Assembly: GCA_964016885.1 (NCBI GenBank)
Contig: OZ024743.1
Location: 255,192,001-255,256,000, forward strand
DNA length: 64,000 nt
Source: Eledone cirrhosa
Taxonomy: Eukaryota
Reading direction: 5' to 3'
Both the position numbers and the translations under genes were made by a program. Below, in pieces: positions 10,240 to 63,168 of the stretch. The first letter of the stretch is position 1. Each line of letters starts with the position of its first letter. The notes under the pieces are model-generated. The model did not search any database. It was not told the origin of the DNA and saw nothing but the letters and a program-made list of their open reading frames with translations.

Positions 10240-10581
10240 GGAGGCACATGGCTTAGTGGTTAGAGCATTGGCCTTGCAATCTAAAGGTTGTGAGTTCAAT
10301 TCTCAGACTGGGTGATGTGTTGTTTCCTTGAGCAAGACATTTTATTTCACATTGCTCCAGTTTACTCAGCTGTAGAAATGAGATGATAGGGACTGAGGTC
10401 CATATCATTCCACTGCAAAGTGGTCATGGAGGTGCCACGGCAAAAAAGCACCCAGTACTCACTGTAAATGAGGTTGGTGTTAGGAAGGGCATCCAGCTGT
10501 AGAAATCAAGCCAGAATCAGTTTCCGTCCCACCCTTGCAAGCAGGGAAAAAAGCAGACGTAAAATGAAATGATGATGATGA
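10240..10581 (+). mobile_element. tRNA-derived SINE (CORE-like centre, RTE-derived tail)
   Basis: GGAGGCACATGGCTTAGTGGTTAG...GAGTTCAATTC; TCCTTGAGCAAGACA; 3' end nearly identical to the RTE end at 11395-11440; (GAT)n tail. Confidence 0.9.
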
Positions 10582-17392: not shown

Positions 17393-18797
17393 GAATGGTT
17401 AAAATGTAAATACCCTTGTATTTCTTAAAGGAAGTTATAGGGGAAGATAGAGTATGAAAGGAAGAGAGAAAGAAGGAGAGAGAGAGAGTGAGAGAGAGAG
17501 AGAGGGGGGGTATGTAGGGGTTGGAGAAATGGGAGAGAGATAGCTTAATCAAAATGTTGTGGTAGGGGTTTTATTATACTGTTTACTCTCAAAGTGACAA
17601 CCTTAGGTATTGTGTTGATATAGTCAAGTTTGGAATTATTTATTGCCACAGAGAGCAGATTCATAGATGTGGACAGGGAGGGAGGTAGACCGAGGGCGAG
17701 AGAGAGAGAGGAAGGGAGAGAGAGAAAGAAAGAGAGATAGAGAGGAGACAGACGAAAGCAACGAGATGGGGATACATCGAGTTCAGAGTTGTAGTCTACA
17801 AATCGCACTCAAGTATCTATTTATAATGATAAGCAGGGTATTATCTTGTAGTGTGGGGGTGGGGGATATAGTTAGGAAGTATTTGAGAGAAATTAGTTAG
17901 CGAGAAAGCGATGTTGTAGTCTCGGGTTCGAATGTTAATTTATTTTATAGTGAGAGAATTTAGCCTTCAGTTTGTGGTTGCAGTATAACGATCGTTCGAT
18001 TCTGTCATTTAGTAATTTGTTTTTGGATTTTAAGATATAAAAGAGTTCAAGGCTGCAGAATCTGCAGTACTTCAATCCACTCCGATATGCACTAGCACTG
18101 GGTAGTTTATTCCATTTCAAGGTGAACTGCCGGTTGCATTCTCGGAGTTGCCAGGTCTTATTGGTGAGCGTAGTCACAAGACGGTGTTTAGGATGTTTAA
18201 TCGAAAATCGATGACGATACCAGCGAGATTTAAAGGAGATAGTGGTAGACCCGATGTAATAACATTTCTGGTCGTTCGATTCGACAGTGCATTGATAAAC
18301 AATGTTGGACTCTAGGTATTTATTCTTCAATGAGCATCTTTCGGGCAGGTGGCAGTTGCAGTTTCTGTTAAGGGTAGCAGGTATACCATGGATAGGTTGG
18401 GATAACAGTTCAGGTGGGTTGTGTTATACCCCTCTCCCATTTGGTGGTTGGGAGGCCGATACTACGTTATGCTCATCTGTTACTAAAATATTTTGTTTTG
18501 TAGTGTTGTTTAATAATTGCTTTAAGTTAAGTTTTGTTTATGTATGCTTCAAGATTTGGTGCAGTGGAGTATGATAGCTTAATAGTCTTAGAGTTTAGAA
18601 TCTTACTGTATTTATGGGAACTAGGGAAATGCTTGTTAATTAACTTAAAGAATGAAAGAGATAGTTTTGTACACAAGACAATACCCTGCTTATCATTATA
18701 AATGGATACTTATATAAATGGAGTGCGATTTTTAGACTACAACTATGAACTCGATGTATCTCCATCTCGTAGCTTTCGTCTGTCTCCTCTCTATCTC

Positions 18798-32555: not shown

Positions 32556-33010
32556 ATCATCACCGTTTTACATCCACACTAGCATGGGTTAGACGGGTTG
32601 TCCTGTTGTGAGCAGTGTCCGATCGGCTGACCTTGTCTTGCTCATACGGGAACTGATTCTGGCTTGATTTCTACAGCTGGATGCCCTTCCTAACACCAAC
32701 CTCATTTACAGTGAGTGGTGGGTGCTTTTTTTTCTGTGGAGCCTACACGTCCACTTTACAGTGTGGGCTCGGTGCTTTTTTGCCGTGGCACCTCCACGAC
32801 AACCTTGCAATGGAATGATAGGGACTGGGGTCCCTATCGTTCCACTGCAAAGTGGTCGTAGAGGTGCCACAGCAAAAAAGCACCCAGCACTCACTGTAAA
32901 TGAGGTTGGTGTTAGGAATGGCATCCAGCTGTAGAAATCAAGCCAGAATCAGTTCCCGTCCCACCCTTGCAAGCAGGGAAAAGCTGACGTAAAATGATGA
33001 TAATGATGAT
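32556..33010. mobile_element. Head-to-head SINE/RTE-UTR fragments forming an inverted pair
   Basis: 32645-32800 is approximately the reverse complement of 32850-32957; the two ends carry different RTE-type tails. Confidence 0.7.
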
Positions 33011-33080
33011 ATATATATACATATATATATCTTTATCATCACCATCGTTTTAAAGTCTGCTTACTCTGCTATTTATATAT

Positions 33081-33597
33081 ATATAGACATAGAATATTCG
33101 AAAATATTCTGTATGTTTATAATAAACATTTTGAAGACCTAATCGCTATAGAATAGAATACGTCACGTATTACAATTAGATTCTCGATAAAAGCAAGGGA
33201 AGTAATCTACGCGTTTCATTCTCGTTAGAAATCATCAGGACTACATATCCAGTGCTTTTATCGAGAATGACACAGCTAGAGACTTATAGAATACTTAGCT
33301 GTGTACAGGAACTGGTTTGAAAGAGCGGTTGCCGGTCCGGCAGAAATTAGAAATTGGAATAAATGCTCTGAAATAGCGATATATATGTGAATATAGACAT
33401 AGAATATTCGAAAATATTCTGTATGTTTATAATAAACATTTTGAAGACCTAATCGCTATAGAATAGAATACGTCACGTATTACAATTAGATTCTCGTAGG
33501 TCTTCAAAATGTTTATTATAAACATACAGAATATTTTCGAATATTCTATGTCTATATTCACATATATATCGCTATTTCAGAGCATTTATTCCAATTT

Positions 33598-33600
<3 letters not shown>
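33081..33600 (-). mobile_element. Retrozyme-like non-coding element: 310-bp unit, about 1.3 tandem copies plus 5' inversion
   Basis: 33081-33186 repeats at 33391-33496; 33497-33600 is an inverted copy of about 33347-33450; contains a hammerhead; (TA)n on both sides; no ORF. Confidence 0.85.
33202..33244 (-). ncRNA. Minimal type I hammerhead ribozyme
   Basis: gtagtc CTGATGA t ttct aacg agaa t GAAAC GC GTA gattac; 6-bp stem I; palindromic ACGCGT stem III. Confidence 0.88.
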
Positions 33601-33649
<49 letters not shown>

Positions 33650-33652
<3 letters not shown>

Positions 33653-33765
33653 TCATCATCATCATCATCATTTCATTTAACGTCTGCTTTTTCCCTGCTT
33701 GCAAGGGTGGGATGGGAACTGATTCTGGCTTGATTTCTACAGATGGATGCCCTTCCTATCACGAA
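33650..33765 (-). mobile_element. SINE 3' tail fragment
   Basis: Reverse complement of the 10480-10581 segment. Confidence 0.75.
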
Positions 33766-33774
33766 CCTATATAT

Positions 33775-35078
33775 ATATGAATGTATATTAGGCTTCTACA
33801 TATCCTATCACCAACCTATATATACATGAATGTATATTAGGCTGCTACATAAACTGGAAATATTCTCCGAATTTGTAGAAAACTTATAATGAAACAATTG
33901 TTTGGAAAGAGAGATATATTTTAACTTTATTTATATCTCATAAAATAATACAACTGGCTTTTCCACATAATACATATTGTTAGCACCCAAACACTTAAAT
34001 TGGGTTTATATTAAAATATAACCTGTTTGTTGGGTGAGATGGTTACCAGTCAGAGATTAGCTTTAAACTATCTCTGTTATTGTATTAATATTTTACTCTT
34101 GATTGGCCAGAGGTGTTTATTTCCAGGTACCTTATAAATTTGACTTTCCGTATTTATTACTGTTGTGCGATATTGTGGTTTTTATTGGTTGTAACTTCTC
34201 TGTTTTTTAGCCTAAGAAAAATATATTTATGCCTATGTATATAATTACATGAATACATTTATTTTTTAAAATTAATTGAGTTCTTTACACGAGGAATTGA
34301 TATTAGTTTTGAAATAACTAATTAACCCGCGTGTGTTGTATATTTTACTCTTAATTCGGCCGGAGATTTACATTCCCATTTGCCCTTCTAAGCATAACTT
34401 TCCGTATTTACTACGGTTACGAGATGCGGTTTCTTATTCAGGTACAACCTCTGATTTTAGCCTAAGAAAATATCTATATGCGTGTGTAACTTATACACGC
34501 ATATATTTATTTTTTATTTTCAATTGAGTTCTTAACACGTTGGATTGATAATGTTTTCGAATAAACTGATTAACCCGCGTGTATATTATTTTGTTTCCTC
34601 CTTTCGTGGATCGTAGTTGTCTCCCCTTCCCGCTTAGTGACACTATAACACTTCCTCAGTCAAAAACTGCTGGAATTTCAAATTTGCCGGTCATTCGATG
34701 CGGGAAGGAGCAACTTAACGGACATGATTTTTAACCGTCGTAAGAAATGTTTTTCTTATATCAAGTTTAATGGGCATCCACTGATGATTTATAAACGCCC
34801 ACCTAAATATATTCTTACATGAATGTATATTAGGCTTCTACATAAACTGGAAATATTCTCCGAATTTGTAGAAAACTTATAATGAAACAATTGTTTGGAA
34901 AGAGAGATATATTTAACTTTATTTATATCTCATAAAATAATACAACTGGCTTTTCCACATAATACATATTGTTAGCACCCCAAACACTTAAATTGGGTTT
35001 ATATTAAAATATAACCTAATGTTTGTTGAGTGAGATGGTTACCAGTCAGAGATTAGCTTTAAACTATCTCTGTTATTG

Positions 35079-35082
<4 letters not shown>
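33775..35082 (+). mobile_element. Non-coding hammerhead-bearing element, ~990-bp unit with ~260-bp terminal direct repeat
   Basis: 33825-34088 recurs at 34818-35082; internal ~250-bp duplication 34090-34585; ends in (TA)n. Confidence 0.8.
34777..34900 (+). ncRNA. Type I hammerhead with ~95-nt stem II domain
   Basis: tcca CTGATGA t ttataa...ttataa t GAAAC AATT GTT tgga. Confidence 0.72.
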
Positions 35083-35135
<53 letters not shown>

Positions 35136-40454: not shown

Positions 40455-41573
40455 TTATAGTAGCAGTTTTGGCCAATTTTTGCTCGACAAAATAATTTGT
40501 TGTTGTCTCCGTGTGTGTGTTATCGTTGTTGTGTGTGTTGTTATATTGTTGTTTGTGTCTGCGTGTCTGTTGTTGTTGTATCTGGGTATGTTGCTATTGT
40601 TGTTGTTGATGTGTGTGTTGTTGTTATGGTTGTCTCCGTGTGTGTTATCGTTGTTGTGTGTGTTGTTATTGTTGTTTGTGTCTGCGTGTCTGTTGTTGTT
40701 GTATCTGGGTATGTTGCTATTGTTGTTGTTGTTGTTATTGTTGTTTGTGTCTGTGTGTCTGTTGTTGTTGGGATGTGTGTTGTATATGTGTGTGCGTATA
40801 TTGTTGCTTTTGTTTTTGATGCTCCAGCGTAGTTTTGTAAATGATTTTTCTATTTCTGACAGACAACTAATCATATTTACCTTCTTGAATGTCGCAAATT
40901 TGGGTGGCAGACGTAACACATACATTTCATTATTATCTATTTCCGTGTTTCCATAAATGTTGGTATTTTCGTTGTTGAACTCTTCTGATAATGAGGTGTC
41001 GGCCATGTTGATACCGTCAATTTTGTCGGGGTATCTATTGGTATACTCTTTAGTATCCCGATTTAGCTTTGCCTGTTTAAGCCACTTTAGTTTTCTGTTA
41101 AAGTGCTTATCACATTCTTGAGTAATGTACTGTTCTTCGGGGCGTATAAGGCTTATAAATATTAGTTCTTATGCTGGTGTGGTGATTTTAGCTATTTCTT
41201 GTATTAGGTTACGCTTTAGTTTTTCTTGATGACTTAATTCTCTATAGATCTTCTTTTTTATGTTTAGAATTAAAGTTCGTTTTAGCCTATCTGCTTGTTT
41301 TTTGGTGAGTTGTAATCTTCTAACGTCGGTATTGATGGTGTTGGTGTAGATTCTAGAAGTGGTGCACAGTTTTATGAAGCGTAGTTGTCGAGATGTTATG
41401 GTTTTTCGTAGACAACAGAACACGGTGGTTTTCAGTATCTTGTTAGCCTGGCTAAGGCTTACGATATTTCGTTTCTGAATTTGTTTAGCAAGATTCTTTA
41501 TCTGAAATCGTGTGTTGAAACCGATATTGTTATACTTTGGGAGGGTCATGTTGCCAATAAGAAACACACGCAC
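40455..41573 (-). pseudogene. N-terminal part of a PLE ORF (downstream tandem unit)
   Basis: ORFs 41169..41573 and 40455..41006 are in one frame with a single stop; EMYVLRLPPKF...EIEKSFTKLRW resembles PLE N-terminal regions; directly follows the hammerhead at 41690. Confidence 0.6.
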
Positions 41574-41689
41574 CAGTTGCTTTCACTTCAATTTATTATA
41601 TATTTATAAATTTATAAATTTACAAACTTATAAATTAATAAATTTCTGGTTGGTTGGTTGGTTCCACAACCAGATAGTTGTTTATATAT

Positions 41690-41734
41690 AGTCATAGTCC
41701 TTTCGTCACACACTCTGTGACCTCTTCAGTGACT
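41690..41734 (-). ncRNA. Minimal hammerhead in the pseudo-LTR of the PLE at 42018-43520
   Basis: agtca CTGAAGA g gtcaca gag tgtgac GAAAG GA CTA tgact. Confidence 0.78.
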
Positions 41735-42017
41735 GGGGATTCCTTTCTTGGTTTCTGTGCCTTTCCTTTCTTCTATCCTACGCCATTTTGTTTCTGTGTG
41801 TGTGTTGTGTGCTCAGTTTGCGTATGCGCCACATCCGGGTGTCTGTCTGTGTTTGTGTTCATTTATCTATTTGTTTATTTATTTATTTATTTATTGTTGG
41901 TTGGTTGTTTGTTCTATGTGTGTGTGTGTTTTCATTTTGTCCTGTGTGTGTTTTCATTTTGTGTGTTTTCAATTGTAAGTTGTTTGTTCTATGTGTGTGT
42001 GTGTTTTCATTTTGTCC

Positions 42018-43520
42018 TTAATTGTAAGTTGTGATGTTGCTGTTCCACTCATATTTTCTATTTAATTTTGGTTTTAATTCTTTTATGCTTACTGCCTCTG
42101 TAATTTGCCTAAACATTGCGTCTTTTCTGTGTGTGGATTCTATTTTTATTTCTATGCTCTCTAATCTAACCCTGTGTTCTATCTTAGCATGTTGGTAGAG
42201 CACAGATGACTCTTTATTATCTTGGAGGTCTCGCCAGTGTTCATTTATTTGTTCCCCTATACTACGAGCTGTCTCACCTATGTACACTATATTTTTGTTT
42301 CTACATTGTCCTTCAGTACATCTTAGGCTATACACTACATTTCTAGTTTTACAGTTAATATGGGGGCTTATTTTACAGGTTATACATTTCTTATCTATAC
42401 ATGAGGGTCTTTGGAACGGGTATGTCTTGCTAATAAGTGTTTTTACGGAGGTACCAGGCCTTTCTACTCTCTTAATATTGAGATTATGTTTATTTAGGGC
42501 CCTTCTAAATTTGTAGGCTAGTTCGCCTCTAGGGGTTGTATTGATGAACATTACACTCTGGTATTTATTGCTATCATACCATGAGTTTATTCTATTGGCC
42601 TTGTTCCTAGTTCTTTCTATTCTATTCCAAAATTTGCTCCTATAGAAGGGGCAGGTCCCATTTATGTCATTATTTACCATTTTTTCCCATTTGGTTCTGG
42701 CTCCTTTATACACTCTGATTCTATCTCTCTGATTGTAGCCAGAGAACTGCATACGGTGGATGAAGTGTTGTATGTGTCTCTCTAGTTCTTCGGGGTTCCA
42801 CATGCGGGACACATTTCTCATCACCCGTACCAAATCCGCAATCAGTATGTTGATTTTGGTATGGTCCGAAATGGCCGAGTTTCGGTGGATCAGATGTTTG
42901 GAAGTCATGGGTTTGGCATAATGGGAATGGAGGATTTGTTTTTGGTTGTTAATGGTATCTAACCAGAGCCCTGTGTCTAGTACAGGTAATCGATGGTTGG
43001 GGTGTCTACTTGGGTAGTCTATAGTAACTCTAATGCTCTGGTGGATGGAGTTTGCTATTTGCTGGATGCTTTCCATTGTGTTTTTCTCTAGTTCCTGACT
43101 GTTCTTTAGTGGGGGTGTCTTAACTACGATGTTTATATCATCTACGTAGCGGGAGTACATTATAAGGGTTAAGCTGTCTTCTAATTGTTCATTAAGTTTT
43201 TGTTTAAGTCTACTGTCCCACCATACCATGAATAAGTTAGCTATGTCGCCTGCAATGCTAACACCAATGGCTGCTCCTTCCTCTTGGGCATATGTTTTAC
43301 CATTAAATTTGAACATATGTTCCTTAAGGGTTAATTTTATGCTGGCCCCTACCGCATGTGCAATCATTTTCTTCAGTTCATCGTGGTTTTCGGGTGTCCG
43401 TATGGCTCTGGTCCACCCGTTCCATCTATCTGTGTGGGTTTTCTTGGCCATTGAGGTAATGGTAGGTGGTCTGCCTCTTGTTGGTCTTGTAGGGCATAGG
43501 TTGCTAAGGTCATAAGCGTC
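42018..43520 (-). CDS. Penelope-like element RT (C-half) plus GIY-YIG endonuclease, 5'-truncated open frame
   Basis: [45 protein letters not shown]...YIGETARS...EH...H...ITEA. Confidence 0.88.
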
Positions 43521-43539
43521 TAGGTAACTATTGCTATAT

Positions 43540-43671
<132 letters not shown>

Positions 43672-45179: not shown

Positions 45180-45515
45180 TTAATACAATAACAGAGATAG
45201 CTTAAAGCTAAACTCTGACTGGTAACCATGTCACTCAACAAACATTAGGTTATATGTTAGTATAAACCCAATTTAAGTGTTTGGGGTGCTAACTATATGT
45301 ATTATGTGGAAAGCCAGTTGTATTATTTCATGAGATATAGTTAAAGTTAAAATATATCTCTCTTTCCAAACAATTGTTTCATTATAAATTTTCTACATTT
45401 TAGGAGAATGTTTCCAGTTTATGTAGAAGCCTATCATATATTCATGTAAAAATATATTTAGGTGGGCGTTTATAAATCATCAGTGGAAGCCCATTAAACT
45501 TTGATATGAGAAAAA
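45180..45515 (-). mobile_element. Second copy of the 34760-35082 terminal unit with hammerhead at 45364-45488
   Basis: ttcca CTGATGA t ttataa...ttataa t GAAAC AATT GTT tggaa on the minus strand. Confidence 0.8.
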
Positions 45516-45574
45516 TATATATATATATATGTGTGTGTGTGTGTATATATATATATCTATGTATATATATATAT

Positions 45575-46477
45575 AACCAGGTTTGATGGTCTTTATTCTC
45601 TCTCGTTCAAGATTTCACCGAACTTATATTCATGGAAATTTGGGACTTGACTCGTTCTTGCTCACTTTTCGTTGCTTTACCATCTTTGTTTGTTTAAGCT
45701 CTCGCTGTTCCCTTTATTTACGTGTTCCAACGACTTTCTTTAGCCATTGCTCGCACCAACCGGAGGTATATGGTATTTAAAGCGATGAAATACCGATGAT
45801 GGTTGGAAGATCACTGATGAAGGACCAACTTTATTCATATGTAACCCATTCGCAACCACGCAACACGTTTATTCTCATATTTACACATATATTTTCCCCC
45901 GCTGTGAGCCGTCTATTTCGTTCTTACTACTTCCTCTTTCTCTGTATCTTTACCCTCTCTAACAGTCACTCTCTCTGTTAGCCTCTTCCTCACCCTTCAC
46001 TCACTCACTCTCTGTTACTACCTCTCCTCCTCCTCCTTCTTCCCGTTTGACCTGTGCGTAATTCTTTTCTTTCGCACGCTTGGCCAGGCCGGTTCCCCTT
46101 TTTTCTCTCTCTCGTCTACGATTTCACAGAACTTATGTCCACCGAATTCACAGACTAGACTCCTTCTTCCTCCCGTTTGACCTGTGCGGAATTCCTTCCT
46201 TGCTCACATTCCAACCAGGTTTGATGGTTTTTATTCTCTCTCGTTCACGATTTCACTGAACTTATATTCATGGAAATTTGGGACTTGACTCGTTGTTCCT
46301 CACTTATCGTTGCTTTACCATCTTTGTTTGTTTACACTCTCGCTGTTCCCTTTATTTACGTGTCCCAACGACTTTCTTTAGACGTTGCACGCACCAACCG
46401 GAGGTATATGGTCTTTAAAGCGAAGAAATACCGATGATGGTTGGAAGATCACTGATGAAGGACCAACTTTATTCATA
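45575..46477. repeat. Partial tandem, ~640-bp unit with ~265-bp direct repeats, between (TA)n tracts
   Basis: 45575-45840 recurs at 46213-46477. Confidence 0.8.
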
Positions 46478-49500: not shown

Positions 49501-50420
49501 TTAGGAAGACATTGTCGTTTGTTAGAGCAGTAGTGTGCATTACGGACTTGTAAAACCTATCCTTAAGTTGGTCTGGCAACCCCGATTGGGGTGCGTAAGC
49601 TGATATTATTGTGGTAATTGTTTTATTGATTTTAATGATTCTTATCTACCCACTTGTCAGCTAGTAGAATACCTACACCATCCATATCATCGTCATTTCC
49701 CACCCAGAAAAATTTGTAGCACTGACCTTTTCCTACAAGGACTCTAGCAGACTCTCCTCTCCATCTAGTCTCTTGCACACAGCATACATCAATTTCCTTT
49801 CGCTCTAGCATCTCTACGATTTCTCCTGCTCTTCCTTTCATTGTGCTTACATTGACGGTTCCAACTCAGAGTTTTGGGCATTTGTCAACATTCGTGGGAA
49901 AGGGTAGATTTTTTGCAGGGGTGTGTGTATGCTTCTTGTCTCTGAATTGAAACTTCGCATGAGTGCTTTGTAGCTCGCAGATTCATATTTATTTATTAAT
50001 TAGGGGTTGCTCCATTTATTCTCAGCTCATCTATACATAACGATAGGAGAATTCAGGGCTAGAAGAACAGTTGTGGAGGTAATAATGTCAGGGTTTGTTG
50101 GGGCTGGGACGGGTGAGGAGAGAGGTAGGTAGTACTAGTACTGGCAGAGTTTGTTGGGGTTGGTAATGGGTGGGAGGCACATGCTGAGGTTTGATTGGTC
50201 GAATAGGCTAGGTGGTGTGAGGGGGAGGGAAATTGTGAGATAGGTAGCCATCATGGCATATAGCATCTCAGGGCAAAATAAACTGATATGAGTACCTATA
50301 TTAGACAAGGTGAAATGTTAGGATTTCGAAGGGAGTAGATGACTTCGTAGAGACAGCGAAATGATAAATAGAACAATAATAATGTAAGAGAGAGGAAGGG
50401 AGTAGATAACTTCATAGAGA
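46578..50420 (-). mobile_element. Near full-length degenerate RTE LINE (APE, RT, PHD-like finger, long 3' UTR)
   Basis: VGTVNV..., CCVQETRW, ISAYAPQ, AGDFNGHV, KATGPSG, NYRGIKL, AFVDIEKAFD, LHGSETW; 5' boundary approximate. Confidence 0.88.
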
Positions 50421-50429
50421 ATTCATAGA

Positions 50430-50755
50430 TATTCTTATAGAATTCCAGTAATATTTTTGCTTGACCGGCAACCGCTCTGTATAATCAGTTCCTGATTATT
50501 ACTGGAATTATATAAGAATCCAACACACATAATTTTCGGCAAACAAAAGGAGTGCTAGGTTTTGATAAGTACCAACAGTACGAAACAGTGCTCTGTCAGC
50601 TTATCTCCCCTTGTTTACTGAAGATAGAAGTAAGTGACATAGTCACTACCTTAAAACAATAGCGTAAGGTCTTCAAGATGCTTTTAATTAAGCATAGAGT
50701 GTATTGCAAAATACACTATATATACATTCATATATATATCACTATTTCAGAGCAC

Positions 50756-50760
<5 letters not shown>
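50430..50760 (+). mobile_element. Diverged relative of the 310-bp retrozyme-like family, with U3:A8 hammerhead at 50555-50603
   Basis: Shares GACCGGCAACCGCTCT, CAGTTCCTG, AGGTCTTCAA, CTATTTCAGAGCA; taggtt TTGATAA gtac caaca gtac GAAAC AGTGCTCT GTC agctta. Confidence 0.82.
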
Positions 50761-50821
<61 letters not shown>

Positions 50822-50825
<4 letters not shown>

Positions 50826-51377: not shown

Positions 51378-51898
51378 AAAGAATAAAGGTGTAACACACA
51401 AGTTATTATATATTGGTAAACGGAATAGAAAATGCTGACAAATTGTTCACAGTGAAAAATAGTTTAATTAGGAATAAATGAGAATTAGTAATTGTATTGG
51501 TTAGTATTCAGTTTTGGTTTTAAGTTTTACCGGTTGCGCATTTCTAAATGCTTTTCAAAAATAATTTTGAGATAGAGCGTCCGTGATGTTTGCTCTGATC
51601 TGATTAGTTTTGGGAATTCTACCTGTTTTTATGTTAAAAAAGTGGCTCCAGCGCTATTAAAATTGGTTTTTGCGCCAATTCGTGTTGCAAAAATTCTTGT
51701 GGTCAAAACAATTTTGATTGGTCGGTAGAGGTCATGTGAATGTAAAAAATTGATTTTGCGCCAAGACTGAGAAATGACTCTTTCACAACAAATATGTGTG
51801 TGTGTGTAGTAGTAGTAGTAAAGTGTTCGTTGTTAATGGTTAGCAGGGATGTGTGTGCGAACCGCAGCCTGTTGACAGTTCAAATGCCTATTAAGACA

Positions 51899-51963
<65 letters not shown>

Positions 51964-53932
51964 CAGAGTAATTCGTGGTAGAGGGATGGTCAGTAAGAAT
52001 GTGTCTGTAAGTGAGTGGGGGATATTTTAACATGTTAAAAGATATTTTTCAACTCCTGACTTATATGGAGAAGTGTGTGTGTGTATCAGAGTAATTCGTG
52101 GTAGAGGGATGGTCAGTAGGAATGTGTCTGTAGGTTAAAATATATTTTTCAGCTCTTGTCTTATACGGAGAAGTATGTGTGTGCGTGTGTGTGTGTGTGT
52201 ATAAGTCTCTTTGTATGTTAAAATACGCGTGTGTATGTGTGTGTGTGTGTGTGTGAGAATGTGTGTATGTGTGTGTGTGTGGGTGGACCAGTATTTTTTT
52301 CCCTGGTAAAATGGTGTACATTATTCGATATTTTCAGTAAAATCGATTCTCTCAATAGAACATGAAAAAACTTAACAATAAAAGGTGTGAAATGATATTC
52401 ACTATACATATATATATACATATATTCACTATATATATATATATTTTCTTTTGTGTGTTGCACCATAGAACATGTTTGTTTACGTATGTCATTGTGTTTA
52501 TATGTGGGTAGAGATGTGTGCTGATGTAGGTATGTATGTTGACGTGTGTATGTTGTGGGTTCGTCTGAGGGAGAAGTGTTTAGACGGGGTCTGTATTTGT
52601 TAATAAAGTAAGATTCCTTGCTGATGCGCTGGGTGTGGGTGGCATTATCTTTAAATTTGTAGAGGGGAAAGATTCTGAAGTTGGGATGATTTTGGGCGGC
52701 ACAGGTATCAATGTGTTCACTCAGTGGTATTTTCCAGTATTCCCGCATTTTAATTTGGGATCTATGGACAGTCATGCGTTGGCGGAGGCTGTTTTTGGTC
52801 TGCCCTATGTATTGTTCTCGACAACCTGAGCAAGTTAATACATATATTAGATTTTCCGATGCACATGTGAAATTGTGTTTTACTATAAAATGTTGTCCTT
52901 CTTTGAAATAGAATTCCGAACCCTCTATTAGGTTGATGCAAATCCCACAGTTGGGTCTATCGCATTCTTTTACTGTGGGTTTCGTTGTTGTGGTTGGCAG
53001 TACTTTGGCATGTGTTAGGATGTTTTTCATTGACTTAGATTGTCTTTTGCTCTTTATGATATCGTGTGTTCGTAGGATTTGGTTCGTTCTATGGTCCTTT
53101 TTCAACACGGGGTTGTTCTGGAGGATGGTGTCAAAGGCCTCATTGTTGAGGGGGTTGTGTGTGGATATGTATGGAAGAGCTTTTAATTTCGGTTGATTTA
53201 CTTTAGGGTGTCTAAGGTCCTGGGTACTGAGTTTTAGGGCACGTTGGATTCCATTGTCAATTAGTGATGCAGGGTAGTCCCTGCCTATGAGTGTGTCCTT
53301 TAGTTCTTGTAGCCGTAAGTAGCAGGTGTTTTTATTGGAGACGATAGTACAGATTCTCTTGGCTAAGTTGTAGGGAATATTAATTTTAACGTGTCTAGGG
53401 TGGCAAGAGTTGAAAGGAAGATATTGCTTGGAGTCTGTGGGCTTGTAGTATATGTCTGTTTCTATTTTTTTGTTATGGATCTTAATGAGGATGTCGAGAA
53501 AGGGGAGTTGTTGATGGCTGTATTCCATCGTGAAGTTAATATTCGTATTGAGCCCATTTGTTGTGAAAGAGTCATTTCTCAGTCTTGGCGCAAAATCAAG
53601 TTTTTACATTCACATGACCTCTACCGACCAATCAAAATTGTTTTGACCACAAGAATTTTTGCAACACGAATTGGCGCAAAAACTAATTTTAATAGCGCTG
53701 GAGCCACTTTTTTAACATAAAAACAGGTAGAATTCCCAAAACTAATCAGATCAGAGCAAACATCACGGACGCTCTATCTCAAAATTATTTTTGAAAAGCA
53801 TTTAGAAATGCGCAACCGGCATAACTTAAAACCAAACCTGAATACTAACCAATACAATTACTAATTCTCATTTATTCCTAATTAAACTATTTTTCACTGT
53901 GAACAATTTGTCAGCATTTTCTATTCCGTTTA

Positions 53933-53938
<6 letters not shown>
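51374..53938 (-). mobile_element. Penelope-like element (Neptune-like), 5'-truncated, with ~385-bp inverted pseudo-LTRs
   Basis: ORF 52218..53528: LPFLDI, YYKPTD, CDRPNCGIC, FTCASENLIYVLTC..C..YIGQT. 51410-51792 is inverted at 53555-53938. Hammerhead-like motifs at 51525-51561 (-) and 53788-53825 (+) read TTGAAAA...GCAAC. Confidence 0.9.
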
Positions 53939-56349: not shown

Positions 56350-58430
<2,081 letters not shown>

Positions 58431-58489
58431 AGTTTATGTGGTGAGTGAACTTTGGGTTTGTAGTAGTAATCTGTGAATTGCACTGAGTT

Positions 58490-60934
<2,445 letters not shown>

Positions 60935-62639: not shown

Positions 62640-63168
62640 AGTATGTACACGTACATACATATATGTATACAGACGTACAGTAGTATGTATATATATATAC
62701 ATACATGCACACATATATATATGTACGTTTGGATTCACCGAACATTCATTATAATGCTCGGTGTGTTTGTAAACAAACATCCCGTATTAAGCCGCAGTGT
62801 CTAGCAACCATTGTTGCTCGTTTGTTCAACACTGACAAAGGAACGCTGTACTAGTTTCAAGCTTATTAGCTATCGTCAGCAACGTATACCTTCCTGCCAG
62901 ATTGTTGAACGTATATACTTACCTTATGCATATTAATGGCTGAGTAGCCCAATTTGCATATCGAGTGGGTTAATCGGCCGGGTGCACCGAAAACGATAAA
63001 CGGAAAAAATGAAACGAAATTTCATTTCATATGTGTGCATGTATGTATATATATATACATACTACTGTACGTCTGTATACATATATGTACGTACGTGTAC
63101 ATACTTATATTTAAGTAACAGCCGTACTAAGAGTGGGAAATGAAATTTCGTTTCATTTTTTCCGTGGA
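62636..63168 (-). mobile_element. Retrozyme-like non-coding element (~420-nt inferred unit) with 5' inversion
   Basis: 62636-62717 is inverted at 63029-63109, and 63000-63028 is inverted at 63138-63166; contains a hammerhead. Confidence 0.75.
62844..62884 (-). ncRNA. Minimal type I hammerhead ribozyme
   Basis: cgttg CTGACGA t agct aata agct t GAAAC TA GTA cagcg. Confidence 0.88.

Follow-up and report, generated by a model that had tools for sequence, protein, structure and literature searches.

Two diverged copies of a non-coding hammerhead-bearing repeat, likely a non-LTR retrozyme, at TA microsatellites of Eledone cirrhosa

Introduction

What kind of element is a 310-nt non-coding unit that carries a hammerhead ribozyme, recurs in two diverged copies and ends in TA repeats, and what could have put it there? 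[quoted passage not shown] Our reading, which we hold with good though not full confidence, is that the two loci, copies A and B, are diverged members of one family of non-coding, hammerhead-bearing repeats. The family is likely one of non-LTR retrozymes, and a PLE enzyme probably placed both copies in TA microsatellites. Retrozymes are a known class of parasitic RNAs, of which A and B are, judged by their sequence, likely new members; non-LTR retrozymes of 170-400 nt are already described (PMC7229834). For this sequence family the searched literature text names no cephalopod retrozyme, although the supplements of PMC7229834 and of a 2026 preprint (Li, Clavereau and Pollet, bioRxiv 10.64898/2026.07.22.740005) may list one.

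Results

Organization of the two copies

Copy A consists of two arms in inverted orientation, composed of the following parts:

33081..33496, minus strand: long arm of copy A, about 1.35 units, 5'-truncated at 33496, its 3' end joining TA repeats at about 33081
33081..33390, minus strand: one 310-nt monomer, 35% GC, no ORF (stop-free frames reach 59 codons at most, ATG frames 30)
33391..33496, minus strand: 106-nt exact duplicate of 33081-33186, which sets the 310 period
33349..33390, minus strand: 42-nt 'tail' between the two arm ends, containing box 5 (33381-33364)
33497..33599, plus strand: short inverted arm, 103 nt, with box 4, hairpins H2 and H3 and the tail, terminating in (TA)n
33600..33650: (TA)n flank at the short-arm end
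33070-33080: short TA run flanking the long arm

The two arms abut 5' end to 5' end, each truncated there, and extend away from one another into TA repeats; their comparison gave a single mismatch in 104 positions, located at the arm end. In unit coordinates the arms stop at about 33081 and 33349, 42 nt apart, with box 5 between the two stops. The inverted arm (33497-33599) is a feature of the locus that was absent from the initial annotation, which had described an exact 310-bp tandem period without ORF. The lack of an ORF holds, the longest ATG frame of the A monomer being 30 codons, and the period is likewise seen, carried in the window only by the 106-nt exact duplication (117 nt at 97% identity), that is, by about 1.35 units with one ribozyme; the output of Tandem Repeats Finder contained no 310 period. 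Rfam miRNA-precursor matches at this locus were rejected, as they lay far below their cut-offs and were produced by the inverted arm. Around locus A, a very frequent short repeat stands in inverted orientation on both sides (32903-32982 and 33689-33768), and a tRNA-like match at 10247-10310 (Rfam, 33.9 bits) is possibly the head of this repeat. An unclassified AT-rich repeat family occupies 33817-35088 and 45180-45843, whose direct copies are almost identical (97% over 274 nt); a further copy, inverted, lies 11 kb off.

Copy B lies on the opposite strand:

50431..50759, plus strand: copy B, diverged subfamily, single unit, ending 5 nt past box 5; 5' boundary approximate
50760..50822: (TA)n flank of B

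B has no tandem neighbour, and a 23-nt inverted repeat begins at 50431, at its 5' edge. A and B share 186 of 252 aligned bases (74%), with a local alignment score of 126 against a maximum of 44 in 300 shuffles. With a profile built from both copies, the only matches at E<0.05 in the window were A, its partial copies and B, and no further copy of the family was found across the 64,000 nt. Immediately upstream of B we also observed a 26-nt direct repeat with 67 nt spacing (50328-50420), which separates B from the 5' part of an RTE-like LINE on the opposite strand.

Five boxes and three hairpins recur in both copies:

33337, 33314, 33149, 33140 and 33376, minus strand: boxes 1-5 in A
50463, 50486, 50659, 50667 and 50742, plus strand: boxes 1-5 in B
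33306..33337, minus strand: box 1 (33337-33322) and box 2 (33314-33306), identical in B
33091..33171, minus strand: A hairpins H1 (33171-33157), H2 (33129-33113) and H3 (33110-33091, UUCG loop), with boxes 3 and 4 at 33149-33131
50633..50754, plus strand: B hairpins H1 (50633-50647), H2 (50678-50695) and H3 (50698-50717, GCAA loop), with boxes 3-5

Hammerhead ribozymes

Each copy carries one predicted ribozyme, which in A is enclosed by a long stem:

33198..33250, minus strand: type I hammerhead of A, core 33238-33232, predicted cut after 33208 (GUA)
33181..33267, minus strand: 15-bp outer stem enclosing the A hammerhead, 33267-33253 pairing with 33195-33181
50549..50608, plus strand: type I hammerhead of B, U3-A8 core 50562-50568, predicted cut after 50597 (GUC)

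The predicted hammerheads of A and B are of the canonical metazoan type I form, described as having a helix I of 6 bp, a helix II of 4 bp and a helix III of 1-2 bp with a palindromic loop, and as acting as a dimer where helix III is weak (PMC4209133). In A, helix I comprises 6 bp, a 3x1 loop and 3 bp; helix II has 4 bp above a U.U mismatch, which an axolotl retrozyme also has at the base of its helix II (PMC7229834); and helix III has 2 bp with a palindromic loop. Helices II and III of B have 4 bp each, and its helix I of 6 bp leads, as in A, through a 3x1 internal loop into another helix, with a long outer stem beyond. The core switch from CUGAUGA in A to UUGAUAA in B lies where it had first been noted, as does the predicted A cut site, whose counterpart in B is GUC; the U3-A8 core is a natural variant already published (PMC4209133).

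The energy penalty for imposing the active fold is 1.5 kcal/mol for A and 3.0 for B, and in circularised A the pair probability of helix II is only 0.13-0.15 and that of helix III about 0. Rfam hammerhead models returned no match to A or B, either at the gathering score or up to E=10. For comparison, in vitro cleavage was absent in eight of nine Xenopus retrozyme dimers tested by Li et al. (2026, bioRxiv 10.64898/2026.07.22.740005). Elsewhere in the window, hammerhead-like hits at 62879, 40247, 56555, 63688, 6644, 49191 and 56929 were not accepted, four of them folding without convincing structure; the imperfect core at 62849-62879 (minus strand) has a 5-bp helix I and is not accepted as a ribozyme.

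Occurrence in public sequencing runs

Between 63 and 97% of the sampled words were contained in 20 public runs from 17 studies with 18 organism labels, among which no RNA run was listed. We compared a single A monomer with three of these 20 runs (X1, X4 and X10, all of unrecorded kind) and with one raw Hi-C run (X23). Contigs return to their start after 310 nt in three of the four (X1, X4 and X10), a closure equally compatible with an RNA circle and a DNA array. A single 340-nt contig (310 + 30) spans the whole unit in X1 and another does so in X10, with 0 and 2 differences, respectively. X4 yielded 649 pieces, 326 at 99% or above and 97 under 90%; six of its contigs carry the joint back after 310, with a shorter side of only 23 letters, and depth shows no drop at the tail-to-head junction. 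The initial annotation had named copies always continuing into a PLE ORF as the case that would speak against it, and this case did not appear: in the contigs the A-type monomer runs into another monomer. The other adverse case it named, a multi-copy alignment lacking significant covariation, likewise did not arise with the two copies compared.

Of the six X4 loose-end rows listed (8 of 50 rows were listed), four run into or along TA repeats; one of these four breaks off at the tail end where the short arm does, though its junction letter differs. Nine X4 contigs depart from the unit after box 1 into other sequence with a B-like start. One X4 contig of 646 nt (matching window 33322-33385) holds the tail and box 1 and then continues for about 285 nt in unrelated letters; it may represent a third subfamily or else an autonomous partner, seen at its 5' end. 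Natural variants occur as well, with a third version of the 3' hairpins bearing a GNRA loop in X1 and, in X4, a loop II changed to the B-like form (74% of depth) and a paired helix II base (21%). None of the 12.8 million raw Hi-C reads of X23 matched, in a run where the organism's presence is not established; with a genome of 2.5-5 Gb, each genomic copy should have yielded about 1-2 reads. Box patterns had no match in JGI metagenomes (two patterns) or IMG/VR (one pattern).

PLE-type insertion marks and the PLEs of the window

Locus A bears the marks of a PLE-mobilised insertion, namely an inverted 5'-truncated arm, a one-sided tail and a microsatellite target, of which B has just the 3' end joined to TA. 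These features, with (TA)n as the target, are described as PLE hallmarks (PMC8557442), with a tail of 30-40 bp (PMC8557442; PMC11167929). Set beside EN+ PLEs and their pseudo-LTRs (Craig et al. 2021, PMC8557442; Frangieh et al. 2024, PMC11167929; Cervera and de la Pena 2014, PMC4209133), A and B share the partial tandem with an inverted 5'-truncated copy, the one-ended tail, the (TA)n targets, the type I hammerhead and the U3-A8 core variant. They differ in having no RT/GIY-YIG ORF, a unit of 310 nt rather than about 3 kb, a canonical rather than minimal hammerhead, and a tail of 42 nt rather than 30-40.

The window contains PLEs of its own, one of which (41680..43541 with its hammerhead) serves here as context only, as an example of a candidate enzyme donor:

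40455-43541, minus strand: 5'-truncated partial-tandem PLE, with an RT/GIY-YIG ORF (42018-43541) joined to (TA)n, a weak RVT_1 match and a CX4CxxC linker

The ORF is followed by an unrelated minimal hammerhead of its own at 41729 and then by an apparent second copy, interrupted at its start. A homolog search with this ORF returned 15 mostly unnamed proteins with no clade label, the longer homologs having 890-1175 aa on contigs of 3.2-3.7 kb. A second fragment at 51408-53935 has GIY-YIG, a CX4CxxC linker and a frame of about 370-nt inverted repeats ending at TA repeats on both sides, and a search for a hammerhead core in it found none. Further PLE fragments lie at 17935-18423, 57986-58360 and 58600-60739 (minus strand), nested within each other around 57300-60700. 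None of the PLEs in the window shares the boxes of A and B, and no RT plus GIY-YIG ORF was found in or beside A or B.

We weighed the reading that B, together with the boxes it has in common with A, is what 5' truncation left of an autonomous PLE, namely its pseudo-LTR standing alone, with the A type as a deletion derivative and the covariation reported below as a constraint on PLE ends rather than selection on a free circle. B is indeed a single unit with an uncertain 5' boundary, truncated PLEs leave single hammerheads (PMC4209133), retrozymes have been derived from pseudo-LTRs (Li et al. 2026, bioRxiv 10.64898/2026.07.22.740005), and the nine X4 contigs, including that of 646 nt, go on past box 1 into other sequence. 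However, the B hammerhead is canonical with a 4-bp helix III, whereas that of the PLE in the window is minimal; directly upstream of B there is no PLE ORF; and the A type runs into itself rather than into an ORF. We judge this origin unlikely, and favour non-LTR retrozymes mobilised by a PLE enzyme.

Covariation, folding and conserved boxes

Between A and B, 50 helix pairs were aligned: 24 stayed the same, 5 differ on one side and 19 on both, and 2 are broken. Of the changed pairs that pair in A, 24 of 25 still pair in B, against a chance expectation of 10.1-14.1 under independent substitution (P 8e-10 to 2.5e-6), values that are optimistic because they derive from two sequences and from helices hand-picked by eye, among which the outer stem has an ambiguous register at its inner end. 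The core-anchored helices need no alignment choice and kept 10 of 10 changed pairs against 4.6 expected (P 4e-4). Both structural claims of the initial annotation are borne out: the three hairpins (H1-H3) change in sequence yet keep pairing, and the long outer stem around the ribozyme covaries. RNAalifold, run on plain sequence-only MAFFT alignments, agreed in part, recovering H2 and H3 with 3 compensatory pairs of 14 and missing the hammerhead fold and H1.

The loop of H3 is UUCG in A and GCAA in B, both of them stable RNA tetraloop types, and on the ribozyme strand the aligned helices contain five G-U pairs and one A.C. Folding energies lie below those of dinucleotide shuffles, with z-scores of -4.9 (A) and -7.3 (B). 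Compared with the sense strands, the antisense strands reach lower energies (-77.9 against -67.8 in A, -93.7 against -86.7 in B), and the energy of A is undercut by at least 12 of 216 GC-matched windows. What sets the strand is therefore the core together with the G-U pairs and the tetraloops, and not the energy.

All boxes are present in both copies, and the long ones have no other occurrence in the window. The order of boxes, first described as the same in A and B, is kept circularly only, as the last box of A belongs to the partial copy that precedes the unit. Folding of the A monomer as a circle predicts pairing between the ends of boxes 1 and 5 (probability 0.72-0.82) and of box 3 with the start of box 5 (0.5-0.6), whereas a box 4-box 1 pairing was rejected at probability 0. 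Part of the box conservation may thus be structural, since several boxes are predicted to pair mutually. Of the two roles first suggested for the boxes, RT recognition fits a single one, box 5, which lies between the two insertion ends like a PLE tail. A promoter role fared poorly: no convincing Pol III A-box plus B-box pair of the kind that a Pol III SINE carries internally was found on the sense strand (consensus patterns, one mismatch allowed), and a literature search for a promoter gave no usable support.

Could the compensatory changes be mostly mutational, arising by template-switch repair of near-palindromes, with the boxes as a DNA promoter and RNA structure outside the ribozyme unselected? 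The outer stem and hairpins of A are perfect or near-perfect palindromes, the 5' edge of B has its 23-nt inverted repeat, and the antisense strands fold at least equally well. Against such an origin, the 10 of 10 kept pairs of the core region include G-U pairs and the non-palindromic 3-8 core pair, and a swap between UUCG and GNRA loops is RNA-specific. The promoter part meets the missing Pol III box pair, and metazoan retrozymes seem promoterless according to a review (PMC7761336). We consider this explanation very unlikely and retain the reading of a structure-constrained retrozyme.

Discussion

At the level of sequence, the features of a non-LTR retrozyme are present. A and B each contain a single type I hammerhead, complete with core, helices I-III and an NUH site. 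The A unit is 310 nt long, GC content is 35% in A and 33% in B, the longest ATG frame has 30-31 codons, and the A type is arranged head to tail, as seen from the 106-nt duplication in the window and the closed 310-nt path in three of four runs. A motif scan gave one core each at A and B, and not the two or more complete ribozymes per locus that Li et al. (2026) term 'active'; partial or monomer copies are counted within retrozyme families in the same preprint (Li, Clavereau and Pollet 2026, bioRxiv 10.64898/2026.07.22.740005), which also argues for a PLE origin of animal retrozymes. The metazoan non-LTR retrozymes described so far (PMC7229834; bioRxiv 10.64898/2026.07.22.740005) are alike in their 170-400 nt, low GC, lack of an ORF and single type I hammerhead per unit, and also in head-to-tail repeats, a weak helix III or a U.U at the helix II base, and co-occurrence with PLEs. 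In contrast to them, the ends of locus A carry PLE-type arms and a tail. Circular RNA has been demonstrated for the coral, mussel and axolotl retrozymes, whereas A and B are known as sequences alone. Of the viroid-sized, structure-selected circRNA retroelement first proposed, a structure-constrained, non-coding hammerhead retroelement running from monomer to monomer stands; the circle does not follow, since a closed contig arises from a DNA array too, and the class is one already described (PMC7229834).

By analogy with the described coral, mussel and axolotl retrozymes, read-through transcripts of an array would cut themselves, and a host ligase would close the monomers into circles; for A, whose helix III is palindromic and only 2 bp long, cutting would probably require the dimer. 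PLE biochemistry suggests how insertion might proceed: a GIY-YIG/RT protein would nick both strands of a TA repeat, and reverse transcription would start at two internal sites flanking the box-5 tail, giving rise to the two arms. These presumed starts lie 127 and 169 nt downstream of the cut site. PLE protein has been described to cut and extend both strands, with two internal starts defining the tail, and uncut RNA is the main substrate of the lizard PLE (PMC11167929). Because the 416-nt long arm of A and copy B traverse an intact cut site, the template would be a circle or an uncut multimer, not a cut linear monomer, which agrees with the circular or multimeric template of the initial annotation, both forms fitting. 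The long arm of A ends 21 nt before the next cut site, and locus A, with its single ribozyme, would be a dead-end copy. The CX2-5CxxC linker is hypothesised to bias PLE insertion toward microsatellites, and PLEs with this linker, two of which lie in the window, are candidate enzyme donors.

A bolder reading takes the 310-nt unit as a free, structure-selected RNA circle with its own conserved RT-start domain (box 5 paired with box 1), spread to unrelated animals. If true, it would explain the near-identical sequence in 17 studies with 18 labels and the closed, unbranched contigs in two of the three matching runs compared, and the unit would be a retrozyme behaving like an animal viroid; we rate it as highly improbable. 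Hammerhead viroids and viroid-like circular RNAs resemble A and B in size, high self-pairing and the hammerhead; unlike them, A and B are genomic copies with retrotransposon ends and a ribozyme in one polarity only. That the unit is a viroid-like RNA replicon persisting outside the genome and crossing species, with genomic copies as by-products, is the least probable of all: its spread over 20 runs and the single closed contigs of X1 and X10 would suit it, but the genomic copies bear PLE-type insertion marks, at both loci the motif scan found a hammerhead core on just one of the strands, the spread across runs is accounted for by related hosts, prey or carry-over, and neither JGI metagenomes (two patterns) nor IMG/VR (one pattern) gave a match.

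Under the favoured reading of retrozymes moved by a PLE enzyme, the modest addition made here is that boxes at the presumed start of reverse transcription are conserved across two subfamilies. A review states that metazoan retrozyme repeats hold no conserved motif pointing to an enzyme donor (PMC7761336), whereas here five boxes persist across both subfamilies, so that a pair of diverged subfamilies marks out conserved structure and boxes where no informative motif had been seen. The enzyme that moves animal retrozymes and its recognition signal are, in the literature consulted, proposed rather than demonstrated. The same fold and the same boxes in two subfamilies provide specific bases to test, and the position of box 5, flanked by the two insertion ends at the place where reverse transcription by PLE protein is known to begin, would make mobilisation testable in vitro with the system of PMC11167929.
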